This document shows, one piece after another, positions 1,486 to 54,719 of a stretch of DNA of 54,874 nt; position 1 is the first letter of the stretch; every line of letters starts with the position of its first letter. The position numbers and the translations under genes were made by a program. The notes beneath the pieces were generated by a model. The model was not told the origin of the DNA and did not search any database. It worked only from the letters and a program-made list of their open reading frames with translations. This DNA comes from an uncultured bacterium (GTDB lineage: Bacteria > Patescibacteriota > Patescibacteriia > Patescibacteriales > SZUA-104): assembly GCA_913009695.1 (NCBI GenBank), contig CAJVWV010000001.1, forward strand, positions 1 to 54,874, given 5' to 3'.

Positions 1486-2802
1486 TTAATAATCACGCAA
1501 TTTATTAATTCCTTTATATTTTTTGATTCGCTCTAATGCTTTTGCTTCAATCTGCCTAATACGTTCACGGGTTACGTCAAACTCTCTGCCTACTTCTTCT
1601 AAAGTATGGGCTATACCGTTATTTAAACCAAACCGCATTTCCAATATTTTCTGCTCTCTTGGTGATAATTGCCCTACAACTTCCTGCACATAATCCTTTA
1701 ATAATTCTAAAGCCGCTACCCTATCAGGCGTTACACTCTTAACATCCTCAATAAAATCTTCAAGCGTTGAATCTTCTTCATCTTCTCCAACTGAAGTTTC
1801 TAATGATATTGTGTCTTGGGAAATTTTAATAACATGCCCGACCTTATCAATATCAAGCCCCATTTCCGCGGCAATCTCTTCGGGCATAGGTTCGCGGCCA
1901 AGGTCTTGGATTAAAAGCCTTTGAACCTGCTGGAACTTGTTTATCGTTTCTACCATGTGCACCGGAATACGAATCGTACGCGATTGGTCGGCTAGGGCGC
2001 GAGTAATAGCCTGCCTAATCCACCAAGTCGCGTATGTTGAAAATTTATAACCCTTTCTATATTCAAATTTTTCTACCGCCCTGAACAAACCGATATTCCC
2101 TTCCTGAATTAAATCCAAAAGGCTCATGCCCTTAGCGCCTGAAAATTTCTTTGCTACTGAAACAACAAGGCGCAAATTCGCTTCAATAAGCTGCCGCTCC
2201 GCTTCTTTATCGCCTTTTTCTTTTCTTTTAGCTAACTCAACTTCTTCTTCTCTTTTTAAAAGAGGCACCTTTCCAATTTCTTTTAAATACATCTGAATTG
2301 AATCAGAGCTTAAATCAGGTATTTCAGTTTTCTTTTTCTCTTTTACTTTTGCTTTTGAAGAGGGCTTGCCATCTTTTTCCTCATCCAGAATCGGAACGCT
2401 TAAAAATTCTCCGGTATCTTCAATAATCCGTATTCCATTTTGTTGTAAATCCTCAAGCAATAATTCATAGTCAAAAGTATATTCTTCAATTTCAGGGAAA
2501 ACATGTAGCAACTCCGTTTCGGTAACAAAAGTACGCTGCTTGCCTTTAGAAAGCAAAATTTCAATTTGTTCTCTGGTCGGTTTAACTATTTCTCGTTTTT
2601 CAACTACTTTTTTTAGACGGACAAATTTCTTTTTAAACTTTTTTTTCACAGGCGCTTTCTTGTCCGATTTCCTTACTGCTTTTTTAAGATTTTTTTTCAC
2701 AGGCGCTTTCTCGGATTTTTTTGCAACAAAAAACTTGGTTGTTTTCTTTACAACTTTCTTTACGGCTTTTCTTTTTTTAATAGTAATTTTTTTCTTAACC
2801 AT
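1486..2802 (-). CDS. rpoD: RNA polymerase primary-type sigma-70 factor with Lys-rich N-terminal extension
   Basis: 438-aa ORF with sigma-70 regions 1.2-4.2 ([16 protein letters not shown]; region 4.2 [23 protein letters not shown]). The start abuts the dnaG stop (2802/2803), the classical dnaG-rpoD arrangement. Confidence 0.95.
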
Positions 2803-4740
2803 TTAATTAGTGATTTCTTGTATTTCGTCAGTTAATGCTTTAAATTTTTCCATTAACCCTTTTATGCCTTCCTCGTCCCCGGCTTCCTCGGCCTGTGCGA
2901 TTAATCTATTAACTTCTTTTCTTTTATTTACTAAATAATTTTTTTTTAATTCAATAATTATTTTGATAATCTCGTTTTTGGCTCCTTCAATTCCAAGTTC
3001 AAAAAAATCCTTATCACCTAAAAGAACCAGCTTTTCCAACAACTTAAGCTGGTCTCCTGTGTCTTCCTTGTCTTCAAACTGGCCTTCGCCATGATCTCCA
3101 TTAATATTTTGCAATTCCTCTAACCACGGTCTAAACCCCTCATAGCTTACTTGCGGGGGTCTTGTTTGTTCTCCTCTATCTTGAGTCCAATTATCAATAA
3201 GGTTATTATAATAAATTACAAGATTTTTGTAAAGGCTTTTGTTGCCGTCACCAATAACTTGATCTGGATGAATATGATTTATGGCGTATTCAATTAAATC
3301 AGGGAACTTCATTAATAAAGAGACAAACAATTCCGACAACATATCTTCTCTGGAACTTTTAATTTGTCTTACCTCCTTTTTTTCGTTAGAAACATTTTCA
3401 TATTTTCTTGTTTTTGGAGCTTTTTGTAATTTTTGCAAAGTTTCACGCAAGACGTCCTCTCTGACATCAATAGTTTGGCTTAGTTTTTTTAACCAAAAAT
3501 CCTGTTCAATTTTATTGCCTAATCTAAAAAGTATCGGCAATAGTTCTCTGACCGCTTTTCTCTTGTTTTCAACCTGATCTAAATCTAAATTAAAAAAAAT
3601 TTTATCAAAATAATATTCCATGATTGGCTTTGCGTCTTTCACGGCCTCTTCCCACCCTTCTTTATTGTTTTTAATGCATTCGTCAGGATCTTTTCCTTCA
3701 GGGATTAAAACTATTTTTGTATTCATCTCAGCGGACATTGCCTCTTTAATCCCTCTTTCAGCTGCTATCTCTCCTGCTTTATCCATATCAAAAGCCAAAA
3801 AAATATTACTAGAATAACGTTTTAATAAATCTACTTGTTTTTTTTGTAATTCTGCTTGTGTCTTATCCCTGTCCCCTTCACTCGTAAGAGCAGTGCCCGA
3901 TGAAGCTACTACATTTTTATATCCATTTTGGTGAGCAGTGATAACATCCATTTGTCCCTCAACTATAATCATTGAATCTTTCTTTTTAATCTCTCTCTTA
4001 GCTTTATCTAGTCCGAATATAATGCCGCTTTTATCGTAAATTATTGTCTGCGGACTATTAATATATTTTCCCATTTTTTCGTTTTCTTCGTTTTCAGGAG
4101 AAACACGCGCTGAAAAAGCAACCGTATTTCCGTTCACGTCTCCAATTGGAAACATAATACGTCCCCTAAACCGATTATAAAATCTTCCAGCTCCCTCTTT
4201 TTTAACGGACATACCGGCTGAAAATATTTCATTTTCTTTATATCCTTTTTTAATTAATAAATTTATTAAATCGTCCCACGAATCAGGGCTATATCCAATC
4301 TGCCATTCATCAATCGTCTCTTCGGTTAATCCCCTTTCGGCTAAATACTTGCGCGCCGATTCGGCCTTTTGACTTTCCAGTAAAATTTTATGGTAATAAT
4401 TTTTAGAAAATTCCACGACATCAAGAAACCGATTTCTTTGCGAAGTTAATCGCGGATCCTGCCTTTTTAAAGTTACGCCGGCCTTAGGCGCTAAGTTTCG
4501 CAACGCGTCAATAAATCCAATTCCGTCCATCTCCATGACAAAAGAAAAAATATCTCCACCCTTTGAACATCCGAAACAATGCCAAATTTGTTTTTCCGGA
4601 CTAACAACAAACGATGGTGACTTTTCACGATGGAACGGGCAAAGCGCGCGAAAATTCACCCCAGCCGGCTTAAGCGGGATGTATTCACGGATTACATCAA
4701 CAATATCCAATTTAGATTTTATTTCATCAGACTGTGTCAT
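2803..4740 (-). CDS. dnaG: DNA primase
   Basis: 645 aa; CHC2 zinc finger CPFHREKSPSFVVSPEKQIWHCFGC and TOPRIM motifs (IIVEGQMDV, FDMDKAG). Confidence 0.95.
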   Translation of the reverse strand: MTQSDEIKSKLDIVDVIREYIPLKPAGVNFRALCPFHREKSPSFVVSPEKQIWHCFGCSKGGDIFSFVMEMDGIGFIDALRNLAPKAGVTLKRQDPRLTSQRNRFLDVVEFSKNYYHKILLESQKAESARKYLAERGLTEETIDEWQIGYSPDSWDDLINLLIKKGYKENEIFSAGMSVKKEGAGRFYNRFRGRIMFPIGDVNGNTVAFSARVSPENEENEKMGKYINSPQTIIYDKSGIIFGLDKAKREIKKKDSMIIVEGQMDVITAHQNGYKNVVASSGTALTSEGDRDKTQAELQKKQVDLLKRYSSNIFLAFDMDKAGEIAAERGIKEAMSAEMNTKIVLIPEGKDPDECIKNNKEGWEEAVKDAKPIMEYYFDKIFFNLDLDQVENKRKAVRELLPILFRLGNKIEQDFWLKKLSQTIDVREDVLRETLQKLQKAPKTRKYENVSNEKKEVRQIKSSREDMLSELFVSLLMKFPDLIEYAINHIHPDQVIGDGNKSLYKNLVIYYNNLIDNWTQDRGEQTRPPQVSYEGFRPWLEELQNINGDHGEGQFEDKEDTGDQLKLLEKLVLLGDKDFFELGIEGAKNEIIKIIIELKKNYLVNKRKEVNRLIAQAEEAGDEEGIKGLMEKFKALTDEIQEITN

Positions 4741-4853: not shown

Positions 4854-5314
4854 TAAAAATTAAATAGCTTTTTCCACCAACTTTTCTTTTTTAAAAGTTT
4901 CGCGTTTTTATCATATTTTCTGTTCCCGTCAATACTATTTATAATATCACCCTTTTCTTCCTCTCCTTGATAAGGAGAGGACTGAAGTGGGGTTGATAGT
5001 CCTTTTAATCTTTCTATCTCATTTTCGACCACTTCTCCTCCATGCTCAGCGTTATGCATGCGCGTACCCTGATAACTCGGCTGTTTCTGGTCTAAATGAA
5101 GATCAAACACGATTTTATCACCTTGCTCCATGACATACATATGAAGTTTTGGAAAAATACCCTGTCCTAAGCGCCTTGAAAAACTTTCCTTTCCGCTTCT
5201 GCGATCACGAAAATAACCATATCCAGCTCTTCTCAAGAACTGCTCTGGCGCCATATTTAATTGATTTATATTTAATATTAGCTTCATAGCCAGGTTAGCG
5301 GACTGTTTGTCCAC
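4853..5314 (-). CDS. Hypothetical protein (no family recognised); true start probably ATG 5287
   Basis: 153-aa ORF. The first 9 codons overlap a complex palindromic structure, and the internal Met10 (MKLILNINQL...) is the more likely start. It contains a diverged palindromic mini-element at 4957-4996. Confidence 0.55.
   Translation of the reverse strand: MDKQSANLAMKLILNINQLNMAPEQFLRRAGYGYFRDRRSGKESFSRRLGQGIFPKLHMYVMEQGDKIVFDLHLDQKQPSYQGTRMHNAEHGGEVVENEIERLKGLSTPLQSSPYQGEEEKGDIINSIDGNRKYDKNAKLLKKKSWWKKLFNF
4957..4996 (+). repeat. Diverged copy of the palindrome + G-tail mini-element (family 1) inside a CDS
   Basis: CCTCTCCTT-gat-AAGGAGAGG followed by actgaagtGGGGTTGA; compare 14995-15030, 17515-17550, 45526-45561. 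Confidence 0.6.
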
Positions 5315-7009: not shown

Positions 7010-7050
7010 TTTTTTTATTTTATACGGCTTGCCGCTCAAAGTTTTAAAAA

Positions 7051-7123
7051 TGCGGAAGGGAGAGGATTTACCCCTACGCTTCGCTTCGGGGCATAAACTT
7101 CTCATCCTCTCAATTATTTGCGG
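7051..7123 (+). repeat. 68-bp repeat unit carrying the 3' end of tRNA-Ser (distal copy, plus the first 5 nt of a second unit)
   Basis: tgcggaagggagaggatttacccctacgcttcgcttcggggcataaacttctcatcctctcaattatt is identical to the two tandem units at 13051-13186. gcggaagggagaggatt equals the complement of the tRNA-Ser 3' end (13188-13204). Confidence 0.9.
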
Positions 7124-13016: not shown

Positions 13017-13050
13017 GCAATAATCTTTAAAAAATCTAAAATTGTAAAAA

Positions 13051-13186
13051 TGCGGAAGGGAGAGGATTTACCCCTACGCTTCGCTTCGGGGCATAAACTT
13101 CTCATCCTCTCAATTATTTGCGGAAGGGAGAGGATTTACCCCTACGCTTCGCTTCGGGGCATAAACTTCTCATCCTCTCAATTATT
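13051..13186 (+). repeat. Two perfect tandem 68-bp units abutting the 3' end of tRNA-Ser
   Basis: Units 13051-13118 and 13119-13186 are identical. Each ends (minus-strand sense) with the last 17 nt of tRNA-Ser and contains the internal hairpin GAGAGGAT...ATCCTCTC. Confidence 0.9.
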
Positions 13187-13188
13187 TG

Positions 13189-13275
13189 CGGAAGGGAGAG
13201 GATTCGAACCTCCGAGACCTTTTACAGCCTACCGCCTTTCCAAGGCGGCGCACTCGACCACTATGCGACCCTTCC
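13189..13275 (-). tRNA. tRNA-Ser (anticodon GGA), long variable arm, CCA not encoded
   Basis: Minus read GGAAGGGTCGCATAGTGGTCGAGTGCGCCGCCTTGGAAAGGCGGTAGGCTGTAAAAGGTCTCGGAGGTTCGAATCCTCTCCCTTCCG. It has a CCGCC/GGCGG anticodon stem with a TT-GGA-AA loop and type II tRNA architecture. Confidence 0.9.
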
Positions 13276-14293: not shown

Positions 14294-15799
14294 TTATAAT
14301 ACTGGCTTTTTCTTGTGCCACTCCGTTGCCTTCTCATAATTATGTCCGACTCTAAAGAGCATCTCTTCATCAAATCTCTTTCCAATTAACTGCATACCAA
14401 CCGGCAAGCCGTCATCAAATCCGCAAGGCACTGAAATAGCAGGAAGACCCGCAAGTGAAGCTCCTGTAACAAAAATATCTTCTAAATACATCTTTAATGG
14501 GTCATCAGACTGTTCTCCGATTTTAAATGCCGTATGCGGAGAAGACGGAGTTAGAAGACAATCTACTTTCTCTAACGCTTCATCCATTTCTTCTTTTATT
14601 TTGGTTCTTACTTTTTGCGCTTGCAGATAATAGGCGTCATAATATCCGGCGCTTAAGGCGTATGTTCCCAGCATTATTCTTCTTTTAACTTCCGATCCAA
14701 ACCCCTTGCCCCTACTCTTTGTATAAACTTCCATTAAATTTTTTGAATCTTTTTCTGAAAAACCATACCTTATTCCGTCATGTCTTGCTAAATTAGAACT
14801 AACTTCCGACGGAGTAATAATATAATAAACCGGGATGCCGTATTTTGTATGAGGTAAGCTGACATCAATAAACTCAGCTCCTAATTCTTTAAATTTTTCA
14901 ATCGCCTTGTTTATTGCCTCGGTAACACCCTTTGTAATTCCACTAATAAAATATTCTTTGGGTAAACCAATCTTTAAACCATTCAACTTTTGCTCCCTCT
15001 CCTTGCTAAGGAGAGGGTTGGGGTGAGGTTTGACGGCTGGGGCATCAACTGTTGTTGAATCATTTTTATCAACTCCTTCCATGATCCGTAAAACAATTTC
15101 CGTGTCTTCTATTGTTTTGGTTACAGAACCGGGAACATCAGTTGAGGATGTCATCGCTATAAGACCAAAACGAGATGCCCTTCCATAAGTCGGCTTAAGC
15201 CCTACTACTCCGCAAAAGCTGGCAGGTTGTCTTATGGAGCCTCCTGTATCCGTCCCAAGCGCAAATATACACATATCCGCCGCTACTGCCGCCGCTGAAC
15301 CGCCGGATGAACCGCCCGGCACCATTGTTAAATCCCATGGATTATGAGTCGTTCCATAAGCGCTATTTTCCGTAGAAGCTCCGTGCGCGAATTCATCCAT
15401 ATTAGTTTTTCCCAAAAGAACCGCGCCCGCGTTCTTTAATTTTTTAACAACCGCAGCGTCAAAAGGCGCGATATAACCTTCCAGTATCTTAGAAGCCGCG
15501 TTCGTTTCAATACCCTTAGTCATTATATTCATCTTGCATAAATACGGAATTCCTAATAAAGACGATTCAGGTTCTGAGGGCCTTTTAGAGGCTCTCAGAA
15601 CCTTGCGAGCCTTGCGCCGTTCATCAGCCTCTTTAGCTTCTTTTAAAGCTTCTTTTCCGCACACCTTTAAACAAGCCTTAATTTTTTTATCAACTTCTTT
15701 AATACGCGCTAAACACGCCTTAGTTAATTCAACTGAGGTTATCTCGCCCTTTTCTAGCTTTTCACTAGCCTCTCTTATTGTAAGCTCATTCAATCCCAT
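14294..15799 (-). CDS. gatA: Glu/Asp-tRNA amidotransferase subunit A
   Basis: 501 aa; amidase signature GGSSGGSAAAVAA...GTDTGGSIRQPA. It contains two palindromic insert-like segments (14995-15030 and 15570-15602). Confidence 0.95.
   Translation of the reverse strand: MGLNELTIREASEKLEKGEITSVELTKACLARIKEVDKKIKACLKVCGKEALKEAKEADERRKARKVLRASKRPSEPESSLLGIPYLCKMNIMTKGIETNAASKILEGYIAPFDAAVVKKLKNAGAVLLGKTNMDEFAHGASTENSAYGTTHNPWDLTMVPGGSSGGSAAAVAADMCIFALGTDTGGSIRQPASFCGVVGLKPTYGRASRFGLIAMTSSTDVPGSVTKTIEDTEIVLRIMEGVDKNDSTTVDAPAVKPHPNPLLSKEREQKLNGLKIGLPKEYFISGITKGVTEAINKAIEKFKELGAEFIDVSLPHTKYGIPVYYIITPSEVSSNLARHDGIRYGFSEKDSKNLMEVYTKSRGKGFGSEVKRRIMLGTYALSAGYYDAYYLQAQKVRTKIKEEMDEALEKVDCLLTPSSPHTAFKIGEQSDDPLKMYLEDIFVTGASLAGLPAISVPCGFDDGLPVGMQLIGKRFDEEMLFRVGHNYEKATEWHKKKPVL
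14995..15030 (+). repeat. Family 1 palindrome + G-tail mini-element, in frame in gatA
   Basis: CCCTCTCCTT-gct-AAGGAGAGGG-t-TGGGGTGAGGTT; encodes PHPNPLLSKERE on the minus strand. Confidence 0.85.
15570..15602. repeat. 33-nt GC-rich palindrome in frame in gatA
   Basis: GGTTCTGAGGGCC-ttttaga-GGCTCTCAGAACC (12 of 13 arm positions pair), followed by the direct repeat ccttgcgag/ccttgcgcc. It encodes ...KVLRASKRPSEPE... Confidence 0.6.
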
Positions 15800-16209: not shown

Positions 16210-18806
<2,597 letters not shown>

Positions 18807-21945: not shown

Positions 21946-22782
21946 TTAATTGATAATTGTTAATTGATTTAAGTACCAATTCAAAATTTCACCTCCCCAA
22001 AACATAGTTATTATAGTAGCTAGGGACAAAAATACGCCTAAAGGAATCTGTGAGCTCCATTTCTTTTTACCTGCCACAATCAAACCAACACCTACGACTG
22101 AGCCCATAATATAAGCTAAAAATATGGCTAATAAAATATTAGGCCAACCCAAAGCAACTCCCATCAATAACCCTAGCCTAATATCTCCTCCGCCTATCCA
22201 TTTTCCGCGCGAAACTACAAACTGAAACAAGAAGAAGCTACTTCCTATTATACCAGAAATTAACAAGTTTTGCCAAGAAAATCCTAAAAATAAATTAGCG
22301 ATAAAAATAATAGCTGAAGCCGGCAAGGTCACAATATCCAATATTAAATACCATCGTAAATCAATAACAAAAATAACAATCATCACAGAAATAATAAACC
22401 AATTGCGTAGCAATGTGACATAATCGTTAATTGAAAATTGAAAATTATTAATTGTTTGAAAATTGAAAATTGAAAATTGAAAATTATAAAAAAAGGCCAA
22501 CAAAAATAACACGCCCGTCACTAGCTCTACAACCGGATATTGTATAGATATTGACTTCTTACAATGCCGGCATTTCCCGCCAAGAAGCGCAAAGCTTAAA
22601 ACCGGTATATTATCGTACCAAGAAATCATTTTTTTGCATTTCGGACAAAATGATCTATTGCTCCCCCCTTTACTAAAGGGGGTTAGGGGGATTCCTTTAT
22701 AAAGACGCCAAATAAGGCAGTTTAAAAAACTGCCAATTATTAAGCCGAAGATGAAGATGAAGATGTAAATAATGTATATCAT
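21946..22782 (-). CDS. pilD: Prepilin peptidase / N-methyltransferase (A24 family)
   Basis: 278 aa; CPKC...CRHC zinc motif, multi-TM, IGGGDIRLG aspartate motif. It contains two repeat-derived segments, and its last codons lie in a TAATTGA/TAATTGT heptamer array (21933-21967). Confidence 0.9.
   Translation of the reverse strand: MIYIIYIFIFIFGLIIGSFLNCLIWRLYKGIPLTPFSKGGSNRSFCPKCKKMISWYDNIPVLSFALLGGKCRHCKKSISIQYPVVELVTGVLFLLAFFYNFQFSIFNFQTINNFQFSINDYVTLLRNWFIISVMIVIFVIDLRWYLILDIVTLPASAIIFIANLFLGFSWQNLLISGIIGSSFFLFQFVVSRGKWIGGGDIRLGLLMGVALGWPNILLAIFLAYIMGSVVGVGLIVAGKKKWSSQIPLGVFLSLATIITMFWGGEILNWYLNQLTIIN
22427..22492. repeat. (GAAAATT)n heptamer array in frame in pilD
   Basis: gttaattgaaaattgaaaattattaattgtttgaaaattgaaaattgaaaattgaaaatt is translated as YNFQFSIFNFQTINNFQFSIN. 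Its reverse complement resembles the intergenic 1318-1380. Confidence 0.85.
22664..22693 (+). repeat. Family 2 mini-element (CCCCCTTT-N3-AAAGGGGG + GGGGGATT tail) in frame in pilD
   Basis: CCCCCTTT-act-AAAGGGGG-tta-GGGGGATT; encodes GIPLTPFSKGG just before the first CxxC. Confidence 0.8.
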
Positions 22783-22853: not shown

Positions 22854-23627
22854 CTACAATTTCTGCTCAATATATTCTCTAAAGCTTAAAATTCTTTCCT
22901 GATCGTCTGAATTAATTAAAAAGGGAATAACATCCTTAGACAACTTATTCATTCTCAGTCCTGTTATTTTTTTAAACAATTTATCTTTAAGCTCTTTTTT
23001 TTCGATTTTAAACTCTTTTTTTAAAAAATCATAATCAGGAGCAGTTAATCCAAGTAAATATGAAACATCATAAAAATCACGCCCCTTCTCTCTTTTTCTT
23101 TCCAGTATTGTTACTAATTTTTGGGATAAAATAACAGAAGGCGCGTTAACTATAATTTTTCTATATATATCAAATCTATCCAATACCTTTATTTCCGGCT
23201 TAAATAGTTTCCGCTTATGGACAGTATCAATACGGACTAAAATCTTTTCATCTTTATGAGCCACTAAATTATTTTCAAACAACAATCTTGGAAATCTAAA
23301 ATAACAATGATAAGCGCCCTTTTCAATAAAACGAAATTCTATTTCAAAGCCCTTGTTTTGCATATCCTTTGCCGCGTTATTTAATAATAATTTAAATTTC
23401 TCAAATGAAAGACCGAAATTATCAAAATCCAAATCCTCAGAAAAACGAGAACTGTTGTATACAATTCTAATCGCAGTTCCACCCATAAAGCTTAAATGCT
23501 CGCTTCCCTCCATTTTAAAAATTGAATCTAAAAGCTCATGCTGAATATATTCAACTAAAACCGCCTTAGGATTGCGGCGAAAAACTTCTTCTGAATATTT
23601 TTGTTTAATTTGATTTAATGTCAACAT
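22854..23627 (-). CDS. abiEii: AbiEii/AbiGii-family nucleotidyltransferase toxin (type IV TA / abortive infection)
   Basis: 257 aa; LSFMGGTAIRIVYNSSRFSEDLDFD matches the DUF1814/AbiEii signature (GGTAL...RFSEDLDF). Confidence 0.8.
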   Translation of the reverse strand: MLTLNQIKQKYSEEVFRRNPKAVLVEYIQHELLDSIFKMEGSEHLSFMGGTAIRIVYNSSRFSEDLDFDNFGLSFEKFKLLLNNAAKDMQNKGFEIEFRFIEKGAYHCYFRFPRLLFENNLVAHKDEKILVRIDTVHKRKLFKPEIKVLDRFDIYRKIIVNAPSVILSQKLVTILERKREKGRDFYDVSYLLGLTAPDYDFLKKEFKIEKKELKDKLFKKITGLRMNKLSKDVIPFLINSDDQERILSFREYIEQKL

Positions 23628-31893: not shown

Positions 31894-31986
31894 CCCCCCT
31901 TTAGCAAGGGGGGGGTTGGGGGGATTTAGCGGAGGTGGCATATTACCACGGTTTTAAATCCCCCTAGCCCCCTTTAATAAAGGGGG
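31894..31986. repeat. Two family 2 mini-elements in inverted orientation in the pilC-pilA spacer
   Basis: 31894-31926 is CCCCCCTTtagcAAGGGGGGggttGGGGGGATT and 31957-31986 is AATCCCCCtagCCCCCTTTaataAAAGGGGG. They flank tagcggaggtggcatattaccacggtttt. Confidence 0.85.
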
Positions 31987-32031
31987 AACTCTCTAACTTA
32001 AATAACATACTACCTGTGCCGACTAAAATCT

Positions 32032-44560: not shown

Positions 44561-44586
44561 CCGCCCAGCCATTCATGGCTGGGCGG
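44561..44586. terminator. GC-rich hairpin between the convergent radA and recG genes
   Basis: CCGCCCAGCC-attcat-GGCTGGGCGG has a perfect 10-bp stem. No clear U-run on either strand. Confidence 0.4.
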
Positions 44587-44665: not shown

Positions 44666-46897
44666 TTACTCCAAATGCACTTTTTTCTCCCACTCCCCTA
44701 ACTTCTCTTTCAACTCTAAATAATTACTCAAATTCTCATCTTTCTTAATTAACTTTTCAGCTTCGCTTTTAGCTAACTTCATTAATTCATAATCAAAAAG
44801 CGAGGCCATTTTTAATTCAGGAAAACCTTTCTGCATTGTACCGTAAACTTCACCGGGCCCCCTAAATTTTAAATCCATTTTAGCGAGCGCAAAACCGTCA
44901 TTATTATCAACCAGAGCCTGCAAGCGCTTTAAGGTCTTTGGTGAATCGCTTTCCGTAAACAAAAAACAATATGATTGATGATCGCTTCTTCCTACTCGAC
45001 CTCTAAATTGATGAAGCTGCGCCAACCCAAACCTGTCCGCGCCTTCTATCATCATTATTGCCGCGTTAGGCACGTCCACACCTACTTCCACGACCGACGT
45101 AGAAACTAAAATCTTTATTTTATTATCTAAAAAATCCCGCATTACTTGCTCTTTGCTGGTGGCTTTTCCGCCAGAGGCGGACCAGCCTCTGGCTGGCATA
45201 CGGCCATGAAGCATACCAATATTTAAATCTTTAAAAACCTTTTTATCTAATTTTTCAAATTCTTCTTTTACTGATTTAACACCTAATTTGTCGGACATAT
45301 CTATTAAAGGACAAATTACAAAAACCTGCCTTCCCTCTTTAATCTTTTCCCTAATAAAATCATAAACCTTTTTCCGTTTTATTTCGGGAACGACCTTAGT
45401 TAAAATCTTTTTCCTTCCAATCGGCATCTCATCAATAACCGAAATATCTAAATCGCCGTATAAAGCTAAAGCAAGCGAACGAGGAATAGGCGTAGCGGTC
45501 ATAGACAGTAAATGCGGCATTTTCTCCCTCTCCTTACTAAGGAGAGGGTCGGGGTGAGGTCCCGACTTCTCTATTATCATCTTTCTCTGCTCAACACCAA
45601 ACCTATGCTGTTCGTCTATGATTACCAACGACAGGTTTTTAAATTCTATCGTCTCCTGAATTAAAGCATGCGTTCCAATAATAACGTCAACTTCGCCACC
45701 CTTTATCGCTTTTGTCATCTTCTTTTTAGATAATCCATTGCTCTTTGTTCCATGTTCCTTGTTCCATGTTCCTTGTCTCGTGCTTCTCGTCATCAGCCCC
45801 ACCTTAATATCAAAATCAGCAAAAAAATTAATAACGCTATCATAATGCTGCTTAGCCAATATCTCCGTCGGAACCATTAAAACCGCTTGTTTTTTATTTA
45901 AAACCGTATTTAAAATCGCCATAAGAGCCACAACAGTTTTTCCGCTTCCAACGTCCCCTTCTAAAAGACGCGACATAGGATGCGGGCTTTCTATATCCTG
46001 CAAAATCTCCCAAGCCGCTTTACGCTGAGCGTCAGTCAATTTAAACGGCAAGCTATCAACAAATTTCTTAGTTTCTTTTTTTAAAAATTTAATCTTCTCC
46101 GCGACGCATTGCAATGTGTCTCTACGAATCAATTGCGACTGCGCCTGAATTAAAAAAAGCTCGTTAAACGCTAAACGCCTGCGAGCATTATCAATATCTT
46201 GCTTGTTTTTAGGAAAATGAATTTTACTTATGGCATCGCCTAAATTTAATAGCTTTAAATTCTTCTCTATTTCGTTCGGCAACCAGTCTTTCACCTCTTT
46301 AGCTAAGCCTACGACCTGCTTAATCAAAAACCGAACCTGCTTCTGCGTAATATTGGCGGTTAGATGATAATTAGGAACAAACCCCTGCGTATGCACAGCA
46401 AATCCCCCTCCGCCCCCTTTAATAAAGGGGGGATTTTTAATATTTCCCCTCTTTATTAAAGGGGGGCTGGGGGGATTTAAATGGGTTTGGGGGATTTTCT
46501 CATAAATAGGCGATTTCATAATAAAACTTCCATAATCGTCTTCAACCTTCCCGGCCAAAGAAACCTTATCACCCACCCGCAGATTCTTAGCAATAAACGG
46601 CTGATTAAACCAAATAACCTTAATACTTTCCGTATCGTCCGAAACAAGCGCCTCTACTATACTCATGCGTTTTCTGTGACTTCTTTTGCTCTGGATTAAT
46701 TCAATCTGTCCGACAACATTAGCCGACTCACCCGCCTTTAAATTATCAATCGGGGTAATCTTAGAAAAATCGTCATACCGAAACGGAAAATAATAAAGCA
46801 GGTCTTCCACCGTTTCAACACCCAATTTTTTAAGGCGTTTCGCGGTTTGAACCCCGACTCTGTTTATTTTAGTTATGTCTGTATTTAGTTCTAGCAT
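44666..46897 (-). CDS. recG: ATP-dependent DNA helicase RecG
   Basis: 743 aa; GDVGSGKT, DEQHRFGV, TATPIPRS, HGRM, QLHQFRGRVGRS. It carries at least four repeat-derived in-frame segments. Confidence 0.95.
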   Translation of the reverse strand: MLELNTDITKINRVGVQTAKRLKKLGVETVEDLLYYFPFRYDDFSKITPIDNLKAGESANVVGQIELIQSKRSHRKRMSIVEALVSDDTESIKVIWFNQPFIAKNLRVGDKVSLAGKVEDDYGSFIMKSPIYEKIPQTHLNPPSPPLIKRGNIKNPPFIKGGGGGFAVHTQGFVPNYHLTANITQKQVRFLIKQVVGLAKEVKDWLPNEIEKNLKLLNLGDAISKIHFPKNKQDIDNARRRLAFNELFLIQAQSQLIRRDTLQCVAEKIKFLKKETKKFVDSLPFKLTDAQRKAAWEILQDIESPHPMSRLLEGDVGSGKTVVALMAILNTVLNKKQAVLMVPTEILAKQHYDSVINFFADFDIKVGLMTRSTRQGTWNKEHGTKSNGLSKKKMTKAIKGGEVDVIIGTHALIQETIEFKNLSLVIIDEQHRFGVEQRKMIIEKSGPHPDPLLSKEREKMPHLLSMTATPIPRSLALALYGDLDISVIDEMPIGRKKILTKVVPEIKRKKVYDFIREKIKEGRQVFVICPLIDMSDKLGVKSVKEEFEKLDKKVFKDLNIGMLHGRMPARGWSASGGKATSKEQVMRDFLDNKIKILVSTSVVEVGVDVPNAAIMMIEGADRFGLAQLHQFRGRVGRSDHQSYCFLFTESDSPKTLKRLQALVDNNDGFALAKMDLKFRGPGEVYGTMQKGFPELKMASLFDYELMKLAKSEAEKLIKKDENLSNYLELKEKLGEWEKKVHLE
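45168..45196. repeat. GC-rich twin-hairpin segment in frame in recG
   Basis: CCGCCagaGGCGG-a-CCAGCCtctGGCTGG. The arms GCCAGAGGC/GCCTCTGGC are also mutually complementary. It encodes PARGWSASGG between HGRM and SKEQVM. Confidence 0.65.
45526..45561 (+). repeat. Family 1 mini-element in frame in recG
   Basis: CCCTCTCCTT-act-AAGGAGAGGG-t-CGGGGTGAGGTC; encodes PHPDPLLSKERE between DEQHRFGV and TATPIPR. Confidence 0.85.
45747..45774. repeat. (GTTCCAT GTTCCTT)x2 heptamer tandem repeat in frame in recG
   Basis: gttccatgttccttgttccatgttcctt; encodes part of RQGTWNKEHGTKS. Confidence 0.8.
46401..46497. repeat. Inverted pair of family 2 mini-elements plus an extra GGGGGATT tail, in frame in recG
   Basis: 46401-46432 is AATCCCCCtccgCCCCCTTTaataAAGGGGGG, 46446-46477 is CCCCTCTTTattaAAGGGGGGctGGGGGGATT, and 46489-46496 is GGGGGATT. 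Together they encode NPPSPPLIKRGNIKNPPFIKGGGGGFA. Confidence 0.85.
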
Positions 46898-54056: not shown

Positions 54057-54719
54057 TTAATTATTTACTGCTAAATTTAAGTTTTTTGATATGCTTTTCA
54101 AAATCAGAATTAATTTCTTGAGTTTTGTTAAACTCATCATATTCATCAAAAACTTTTCGCTCTGCTTGTTGGTAAGAACTTTTTCCTTTTCCATCCAAAA
54201 TCTCATATTTATTAAATTGCAGAAATTCTTGAAATAATCTTTGCCAAAATATCTTCCATTTTTCATTCTCTCATCATCCATCGCAAAGCCCTTAATAATA
54301 TATTCTTTTAATACTTTACTTGCCCAAATACGAAACTGGGTTGCTTGCATCGAATTTACCCGATATCCAACGGACAAAATTGCGTCTAAATTGTAAAATT
54401 TTGTTTTTACATTTTGAGTTTTCCCTTTTATTGCCCCGTGTTGAGTGGGTATTTCCAAAATGGAAACAACCACTTTTTCATCCAACTCGCCATTTTCAAA
54501 AATATTTTGCAGATGCTTTGAGACTGCTGGAATTCCAACCCCAAAAAGTTCCGCCATTCTTTTTTGAGTAAGCCAAATATCCTCATTATGCAAAAACGCT
54601 TCTACTTTTACCTCGCCGTTTGGCGCTGTATAAAGTAAAAATTCCGTTAACTCGTACCCCAGGGCACCTTCTCTGGCTTCGCCATTCACCTTGTCTTTTG
54701 TTGTAATCTCTTTTTTCAT
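54057..54719 (-). pseudogene. RhuM-family protein gene with an apparent 1-nt frameshift near 54232-54234
   Basis: The N-terminal ~170 aa carry the RhuM-like signature YNLDAILSVGYRVNSMQATQFRIWASKVLKEYIIKGFAMDDERMK. After GKDYF the ORF-track frame turns into low-complexity sequence. The neighbouring frame reads QEFLQFNKYEILDGKGKSSYQQAERKVFDEYDEFNKTQEINSDFEKHIKKLKFSSK* and ends at 54061. Confidence 0.65.

Follow-up and report, generated by a model that had tools for sequence, protein, structure and literature searches.

This work reports that recG, a DNA-repair helicase gene on contig CAJVWV010000001.1 of an uncultured, ultra-small patescibacterium (Falkowbacteria/Parcubacteria-like), very probably carries selfish hairpin elements that landed and survived in three loops of a gene that stayed intact; the elements resemble repetitive extragenic palindromic (REP) sequences and Rickettsia palindromic elements (RPEs) and appear to have been filtered by selection. 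The stretch analysed, hereafter the window, comprises 54,874 nucleotides (34% GC, about 88% coding) and was recovered in three marine-metagenome runs. A preliminary description, made from the sequence alone, had counted at least four repeat-derived in-frame insertions in recG. All four repeat segments are where it placed them, each far above chance, and comparison with orthologues and solved structures supports reading sites 1, 2 and 4 as in-frame insertions from three dispersed hairpin families of about 34-37 nt, whereas site 3 is a local tandem duplication in a slippage-prone linker and not a landing site of a dispersed element. The gene and its segments are as follows.

44666-46897, minus strand: recG, 743 amino acids, host of the inserts (open reading frame (ORF) list, PDB, Pfam, AlphaFold).
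45163-45196, minus strand: site 1, hairpin element of the GCCnnAGGCnnnTCCGCCTCTGGCGG family; codons 45167-45196 encode PARGWSASGG, amino acids 568-577.
45526-45560, minus strand: site 2, family-1 element with a 10-bp hairpin, 2 nt and a GGGGTGAGG box; C-rich box first on the sense strand.
45745-45776, minus strand: site 3, tandem duplication (Tandem Repeats Finder: period 14, 2.3 copies, 100% match), encoding QGTWNKEHGT.
46444-46479, minus strand: unit A of site 4 (family 2), whose C-rich box leads on the sense strand; peptide NPPSPPLIKRG.
46400-46434, minus strand: unit B of site 4 (family 2), oriented oppositely, NPPFIKGGGGGF.

Site 1 is built around a perfect, GC-rich 9-bp stem (GCCAGAGGC/GCCTCTGGC, 45170-45193) that occurs a single time in the window (0 expected) and folds as RNA at -25.5 kcal/mol (z -3.7). 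The hairpin encodes PARGWSASGG in frame, as had been claimed, but with no second copy in the window its repeat nature is visible only in related genomes. Site 2 consists of the hairpin CCCTCTCCTTACTAAGGAGAGGG plus GGGGTGAGG and encodes PHPDPLLSKEREK between helicase motif II (DEQH) and motif III (TATP); four copies of its family are found in the window against 0.01 chance matches expected. Site 4, spanning about 46401-46497 as a whole (amino acids 138-164), lies in a loop of the wedge domain, where its inverted units form one long hairpin (-49.6 kcal/mol, z -5.0) and the insert encodes NPPSPPLIKRGNIK; family-2 hairpins stand at five places in the window, with 15 overlapping matches on both strands against 0.14 expected. 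For the 14-mer of site 3, no further copy was found in the window.

The product of recG matches the RecG structures of Thermotoga maritima (1GM5, E=9e-151) and Escherichia coli (9WM0, E=4e-112), contains the Pfam domains RecG_wedge, DEAD, Helicase_C and RecG_dom3_C, and has the complete RecG layout, namely a wedge domain, a pair of RecA-like helicase domains carrying motifs I-VI, and the domain-3 extension at the C-terminus. All columns invariant among 106 orthologues are kept, including GSGKT, DEQH and TATPIPR, which agrees with the earlier remark that the helicase motifs are unharmed and supports the view of recG as an intact gene that looks functional. The label 'essential-type' given to it there does not suit the gene, as recG of E. 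coli is a conserved repair gene that is not essential. Relative to the T. maritima and E. coli structures, sites 1-4 appear as gaps of 10, 13/9, 13 and about 26 residues, respectively, and canonical RecG is indeed shorter at all four positions, as the preliminary description had stated.

Structural modelling, named there as a way to place the inserts, gave a concordant picture. An AlphaFold2 model computed from the 106-sequence RecG alignment (mean predicted local distance difference test (pLDDT) 81; predicted TM score 0.76) has RecG 1GM5 as its top Foldseek match (TM 0.66). Its pLDDT falls below 50 at residues 575-578 (site 1), 451-453 (site 2), 381-386 (site 3) and 141-165 (site 4), plus the conserved loop 681-691, and the four insert stretches are modelled without secondary structure between confident strands and helices on either side. 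The model supports the conclusion that the inserts would fall in unstructured, flexible loops of RecG.

The occupancy of these loops was surveyed in the best 120 matches each of the RecG and LigA searches, to which all counts of orthologues out of 120 below refer. The RecG relatives are RecGs of metagenome-assembled genomes, 56-72% identical by BLAST, and are labelled, where a source is given, Falkowbacteria, Parcubacteria or 'Patescibacteria group'. The wedge-domain loop (YEKI...HTQG) measures 51 residues in the query against a modal 24, in line with the claim that the inverted family-2 pair is an in-frame insertion, and the motif II-III linker measures 39 residues against a modal 29-30; at the position of site 1, a length of 25 residues with the insert absent is found in 116/120. 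In contrast, the site 3 linker ranges from 24 to 56 residues, with 37 in the query and a mode of 39, and it holds a different 7-14-nt tandem repeat or AT-rich palindrome each time in the DNA alignments of relatives. This linker is therefore read as slippage-prone, and the perfect 14-nt repeat claimed at site 3 is real but is not an insertion relative to close relatives.

Some insert is present in the wedge loop of 71/120 relatives (59%), in the motif II-III linker of 37/120 (31%) and at site 1 of 4/120. The query alone has all three loops filled, yet it ranks only 18th of 120 by total non-core residues; none is filled in 34/120, and all three inserts are likewise missing from P0002, its nearest relative (77% identity over conserved columns). 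The inserts of the wedge loop and the motif II-III linker belong to unrelated hairpin families in differing frames and orientations (e.g. VETRQRLVST), some of them nested and some at least 90 residues long, and these two loops dominate the insertion landscape of RecG. Judging from the aligned sequences, two specific loops are truly hot throughout the lineage.

Insertions of other kinds were also seen in the relatives. A domain of about 150 amino acids (GxxExxY/PF13366, PD-(D/E)XK-like) stands in frame in the motif II-III linker that holds site 2 (about amino acids 445-456 of the query) in P0053, P0056, P0063, P0067, P0090, P0092, P0097, P0111 and P0112; it is flanked by the repeat-like peptides TNADSSGLTRTN... 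and SPHQSASV..., and one source label reads 'GxxExxY protein'. The recG of P0011 (contig L086) has near motif VI a cleanly inserted hairpin of 66 nt, flanked by a direct repeat of TTTTC type, that relatives 87% identical lack; it resembles a transposable element of the miniature inverted-repeat kind (MITE). Within the same gene, a second hairpin is nested, in frame, in the loop of the site-1 hairpin.

The elements occur in multiple copies within this genome, across the same metagenome and in many further genomes. Read depth rises 3-6-fold at the hairpin cores (6-fold at site 4 unit A), foreign contigs match only 45163-45196, 45526-45560, 46399-46431 and 46444-46479, and loose contig ends fall at 45163/45196 for site 1, 45526/45560 for site 2, and 46444/46479 and 46399/46431 for site 4. 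Therefore, mobile cores of about 34 nt are delimited independently and are multi-copy in the community. At site 2, other contigs share the core alone, and a co-occurring related recG is without the element.

The units share one layout, a GC-rich hairpin of 8-10 bp, 2 nt, and a G-rich box imitating the 3' arm, which together make about 34-37 nt with sharp ends. The family-1 core (consensus CyCCCTCTCCTTnnTAAGGAGAGGGnnGGGGTGAGGT) is present in at least 120 metagenome contigs. Among the matches listed, to which the following family-1 figures are limited, 33 of the 63 well-flanked copies (at least 400 nt on both sides), about half, lie in long ORFs, and in 31/33 of these the C-rich box leads on the sense strand. 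Each of the three frames is in use (SPxPSPYxGEG, PHPxPLLxKER and LTPxLSLxRRG); in the C-box-first orientation two frames are always open and the third depends on the loop bases, and in the opposite orientation one is open. Over 98 unique copies, information content sinks to background no more than 1-2 nt beyond the core, no terminal inverted repeats were found beyond the hairpin, and no target-site duplication of 3-6 nt was found, flank matches being within the permutation null; the flank logo has no clear target motif, just C at -2 and a weak T-run.

The family-1 host genes, assigned by Pfam, include repair and restriction genes (UvrA, UvrB, three UvrC genes and the type I restriction R subunit, HsdR), genes of RNA metabolism and translation (PNPase, Val-, Ile- and Cys-tRNA synthetases, PheT, QueA, Dus and KsgA), and those of trigger factor, DHFR, a cysteine desulfurase and an Fe-hydrogenase. 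Further copies lie in proteins with a type IX secretion system (T9SS) sorting domain and in a polyketide-type enzyme. T9SS is not known in bacteria of the candidate phyla radiation (CPR; Patescibacteria); the identical core therefore probably occurs outside Patescibacteria as well. Family 1 has no match in 2.9 million viral contigs, so a phage vector is unlikely for it, and the site-1 family has 5 matches among viral contigs. In contig L137 (Ga0209575_10000605), the adjacent genes uvrC and uvrA each contain an in-frame family-1 element (PHPNPLLIKERG and PHPSPLLIKERE).

Copies of the site-1 family occur elsewhere in L010, L019, L027, L036, L044 and L047. The L044 copy is read in frame within an ORF whose N-terminus resembles RadA (SAQGGSASGGKS), the copies elsewhere, such as that in L010, being intergenic; those in L019, L027 and L047 lie just after a tRNA 3' end, upstream of recG, with that end duplicated. 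A like layout is seen in the window, where tRNA-Ser(GGA) (13188-13275, minus strand) adjoins two tandem 68-nt units within 13038-13191, each made of a 17-nt copy of the tRNA-Ser 3' end (GCGGAAGGGAGAGGATT) and a hairpin element, and a third copy of the unit, 98% identical, lies 6 kb away (7038-7123).

The preliminary description had called recG a hotspot, and this holds in part. Across 1.27 Mb of related loci, the density of strict GC hairpins per kb is 0.198 in recG, 0.074 in other ORFs and 0.80 in intergenic sequence, that of recG being 2.7-fold that of other ORFs (Poisson p=7e-5), and recG holds 3/7 of the strict intragenic hairpins of the window (p=0.003, post hoc). However, gatA, ligA, pilD and an ORF of 153 amino acids share the elements. 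Recurrent hot loops were also found in LigA orthologues, and for similarly close relatives the mean number of non-core residues is 13.6 in LigA against 18.5-33.5 in RecG (about 1.4-2.5 times). Hence recG is hotter than average, only moderately special and not unique. The other copies in the window are as follows.

14995-15030, minus strand: gatA, with a family-1 copy in frame (KPHPNPLLSKEREQK) where GatA 4WJ3 has a gap.
17515-17550, minus strand: family-1 copy in ligA, in another frame than in gatA; a 7-residue gap relative to E. coli LigA 2OWO, the loop being also occupied in about 20/120 LigA orthologues.
4959-4994, minus strand: diverged family-1 copy in the third frame, in the 153-residue ORF, which has no Pfam match (TPLQSSPYQGEEEKG).
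22663-22697, minus strand: family-2 copy in frame in the prepilin peptidase gene pilD (Pfam Peptidase_A24; IPLTPFSKGGSN).
31894-31987, intergenic: two family-2 copies, inverted (repeat matches at 31894-31928 and 31957-31987).

AT-rich short-period repeats (TTCATAA/TTGAAAA type) form a further class of repeat at 17971-18010, 18764-18803 and 22438-22488; they are common between genes and occur in frame within genes, encoding FQFSIFNFQTINNFQFSI in the prepilin peptidase, with another in ligA and the like in LigA orthologues at amino acids 107-111 and 567-568.

Based on these findings, we propose that the hairpin elements would be copied in trans by an enzyme, most plausibly a HUH/Y1 transposase of the RAYT/IS200-IS605 type that recognises hairpins in single strands. 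First, in a genome that is 88% coding, many insertions would strike genes. Second, selection would keep only those that preserve the frame, bring no stop and fall in surface loops tolerating 10-30 disordered residues, and the open frames of the C-box-first orientation would all yield Pro/Gly-rich peptides. Permissive loops of this kind would be the one in the wedge domain of RecG and its motif II-III linker, which could explain why unrelated elements recur in them lineage-wide. Site 3 would have arisen by a separate route, through local slippage duplication in a low-complexity linker.

Several observations weigh against this proposal of landing and selective survival. The Pfam scan of 47 window ORFs yielded no transposase, integrase or HUH protein, nor did a mobilising gene come to light elsewhere in the analysis, and the transposition step is one that we infer; the inserts, likewise, would be translated, judging from the conserved frame. 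In two close comparisons of filled and empty alleles, the filled ones replace 12-20 nt of host sequence and are not pure additions, unlike the outcome expected of a clean insertion; at site 1, 42 nt stand in place of 12 nt, and in the wedge loop about 53 nt in place of about 20 nt. The site-1 insert is patchy, with carriers and non-carriers in one clade of 85-93% identity, and all carriers have a linked KE->xS change beside it, a pattern that suits allelic recombination, or site-specific events that recur, better than one random hit. Moreover, the 31:2 orientation bias of intragenic family-1 copies exceeds the expectation from open frames (p about 0.001); therefore, random insertion plus a frame filter, taken by itself, is incomplete.

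The same replacement-type alleles and the linked flanking change in every site-1 carrier would be expected if the inserts spread mainly by homologous or microhomology-templated short-patch exchange, such as gene conversion or templated repair, and not by transposition; in a neighbour-joining tree the carriers of site 1 do not form one clade, and the insert can be present in one recG and missing from a close relative. As the principal route we nevertheless consider such exchange unlikely, because the same sharp-ended 34-nt core is embedded in unrelated flanks, both at intergenic sites and in dozens of genes unrelated to each other, which is beyond the reach of allele exchange, and because exchange accounts for the spread of an existing insert among recG alleles and not for its origin; the tree, in addition, is star-like at 70-77% identity and without bootstrap. 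The replacement-type alleles and the patchy site 1 with its linked KE->xS change lead us to conclude that short-patch recombination between alleles may contribute to spread within recG.

A further explanation holds that the inserts are functional and positively selected, either tuning RecG and with it the mutation or recombination rate, or acting as pause, processing or internal-initiation signals. The 2.7-fold enrichment of recG, the filling of the same two loops in 59% and 31% of orthologues and the strong orientation bias of family 1 would agree with it, and the xS residues linked to site 1 are conserved through different Ser codons, AGC and TCT. Mutator phenotypes from REPs in repair genes have been proposed (Di Nocera et al., PMC3733652). 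We regard this explanation as rather improbable, since one and the same loop holds unrelated sequences in different frames and orientations, none of the three inserts is present in 34/120 orthologues, decayed copies exist (e.g. P0022), the insert peptides are predicted to be disordered, and the hosts are broad and functionally unrelated.

Internal initiation deserves separate mention, since the preliminary description had suggested that site 2 created a Shine-Dalgarno-like start. The AAGGAG followed nine nucleotides later by an ATG is present as described, and the ATG is in frame (M460). However, Met at this position, before PHLL, is also found in 7/82 insert-free orthologues, so the element did not necessarily create the ATG; the AAGGAG forms the 3' arm of a perfect 10-bp stem, in which it would be locked; and a product starting at M460 would be without motifs I and II (Walker A and B). 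The suggestion therefore found no support. The enrichment of Met in site-2 carriers (11/37 against 7/82, p=0.005), a statistic that ignores phylogeny, appears to be only a hint.

An origin of the repeats in place, by replication slippage or quasi-palindrome templated mutation, suits the perfect 14-nt duplication of site 3, which is single in the window and is replaced by other local tandem repeats in relatives, and it holds for site 3 alone; as a general account it is very improbable, because sites 1, 2 and 4 match multi-copy families with members elsewhere, be it in the window, in the metagenome or in further genomes. An assembly artefact, in which repeats were collapsed or chimerically joined into recG, can practically be dismissed: although multi-copy hairpin cores with depth spikes and branching contigs are a setting where assemblers err, contigs assembled separately from three marine-metagenome runs span every insert free of indels, those of run X1, from a strain 1-3% divergent, passing through all four sites, all inserts keep the reading frame, and orthologous inserts are present in independent assemblies of other studies.

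Selfish elements that land and survive in coding sequence, as we propose for recG, have known counterparts. RPEs are selfish palindromes lying in frame in Rickettsia genes (Ogata et al., 2000, reviewed in PMC10969869). The elements described here resemble them as dispersed palindromes, absent from orthologues, that lie in frame within several housekeeping genes unrelated to one another, in a genome that is small, AT-rich and densely packed with genes; the host genes remain functional, by their looks, and the encoded peptides sit where the fold tolerates them, so that the elements fall in the same functional class. They do not belong to the RPE family proper, judged by size and not by sequence, as the units are 34-37 nt in several families against about 100-150 bp in the Rickettsia-specific RPE-1, the first described (a comparison by description); unlike RPEs, they are also read in any of three frames and in either orientation, and the core of one family recurs unchanged in what are probably quite distinct phyla.

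Intragenic REPs come closest in form, being palindromes of 20-40 bp in ORFs, singles or inverted dimers encoding 10-30 amino acids, frequent in uvrA/B/C, recB, DNA ligase and tRNA synthetase genes, where flexible linkers are the probable product (Di Nocera, De Gregorio & Rocco 2013, PMC3733652). Size, hairpin, occurrence as singles or inverted dimers, and repair and tRNA synthetase hosts are all shared. However, intragenic copies are a small minority among REPs but about half of family 1 among the matches listed, Patescibacteria is a lineage outside that survey (PMC3733652), and neither a GTAG/CGTC tag nor its complement is present at the ends of the family-1 consensus, the site-1 and family-2 cores likewise, which sets them apart from the REP superfamily.

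The inverted doublet of site 4 has the architecture of a REPIN (REP doublet forming a hairpin), its inverted units with a short spacer giving one long hairpin, and similar doublets lie at 31894-31987 and in L128 and L205; as in REPINs, no target-site duplication was found for family 1. REPINs are mobilised by RAYT (REP-associated tyrosine) transposases and are extragenic, lineage-specific and tied to a single-copy RAYT gene (Bertels & Rainey 2011, PMC3116915), whereas no RAYT gene was found among the window ORFs scanned with Pfam. MITEs, which share the small size, non-autonomy and dispersal and occasionally give in-frame fusions (PMC10969869), are 70-300 bp long, with 15-30-bp inverted repeats at their ends and with target-site duplications. 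Family 1 lacks both and is no MITE, in contrast to the MITE-like 66-nt insert of P0011.

Mobile GC clusters are found in yeast mitochondrial var1, and double-hairpin elements in Allomyces. Palindromic elements are described in Volvox organelles (PMC2670323) and coding palindromes in Nematomorpha (PMC6649704). The likeness to organelle GC clusters is that of GC-rich hairpins that spread in a compact, AT-rich genome and are tolerated in its coding sequence; those elements are organellar and of unrelated sequence. An intein or intron was also considered and rejected, as the inserts have 10-27 residues against more than 130 for an intein and the Rfam scan of the whole window returned two tRNAs only, with no structured RNA family at the inserts. 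Full-text literature searches returned nothing relevant on such elements in CPR/Patescibacteria or on the core sequences.

The recG gene is a local case of a lineage-wide, Rickettsia-like habit, in which selfish palindromes survive in housekeeping genes, and the phenomenon itself is already known. Distinctive here are the very high intragenic fraction, the reuse of the same loops across the radiation and the apparently cross-phylum core. We raise, tentatively and as something we hold doubtful, the joint proposal that the hairpin-plus-G-box units form a distinct, unnamed REP-like superfamily, free of tags and target-site duplications, with a core identical across phyla (Patescibacteria, bacteria with the T9SS sorting signal and others), adapted to persist in coding sequence through a favoured orientation that leaves up to three frames open and yields innocuous Pro/Gly-rich loops, about half of the copies being translated, and returning repeatedly to a few loops of DNA-repair and translation proteins; if so, the RecG wedge loop and similar loops could be fast-evolving modules altering repair behaviour.

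The habit has consequences for several fields. Patescibacteria genomes are small and about 90% coding, yet host many selfish hairpins inside proteins, so that lineage-specific 'insertions' in CPR proteins need a repeat check before being read as functional novelty. For protein evolution, the elements offer a natural, replicated map of permissive loops in RecG, LigA, UvrABC and tRNA synthetases, and for assembly and binning, 34-nt cores common to several genomes break contigs. For mobile-element biology, the same core in different phyla without a known transposase calls for explanation, and the concentration in repair genes echoes the older REP observation (PMC3733652), now testable on hundreds of independent events.

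The neighbours of recG in the window are the convergent radA (upstream, plus strand) and the genes of an arsR-type regulator and a permease. Where radA and recG converge, a perfect GC-rich hairpin of 11 bp (CCGCCCAGCCATTCATGGCTGGGCGG) stands between them at 44561-44586 and probably serves as a bidirectional terminator. Upstream of recG in relatives, L081 (the contig of P0002) has bAvd and reverse-transcriptase (RVT_1) genes directly adjacent at 2408-3821, which suggests a diversity-generating retroelement, and bAvd/23S_rRNA_IVP genes are also near recG in L083 and L086; L084 and L085 (contigs of P0010 and P0018) have there a defence island of SMODS, bacHORMA and AAA genes (resembling CBASS, the cyclic oligonucleotide-based antiphage signalling system), restriction-modification genes and GmrSD. 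Other genes of the window include rpoD, dnaG, gatCA, ligA, a type IV pilus cluster and glycosyltransferase genes, as well as those for a toxin of AbiEii type (type IV toxin-antitoxin) and for a member of the RhuM family (22854-23627 and 54057-54719).

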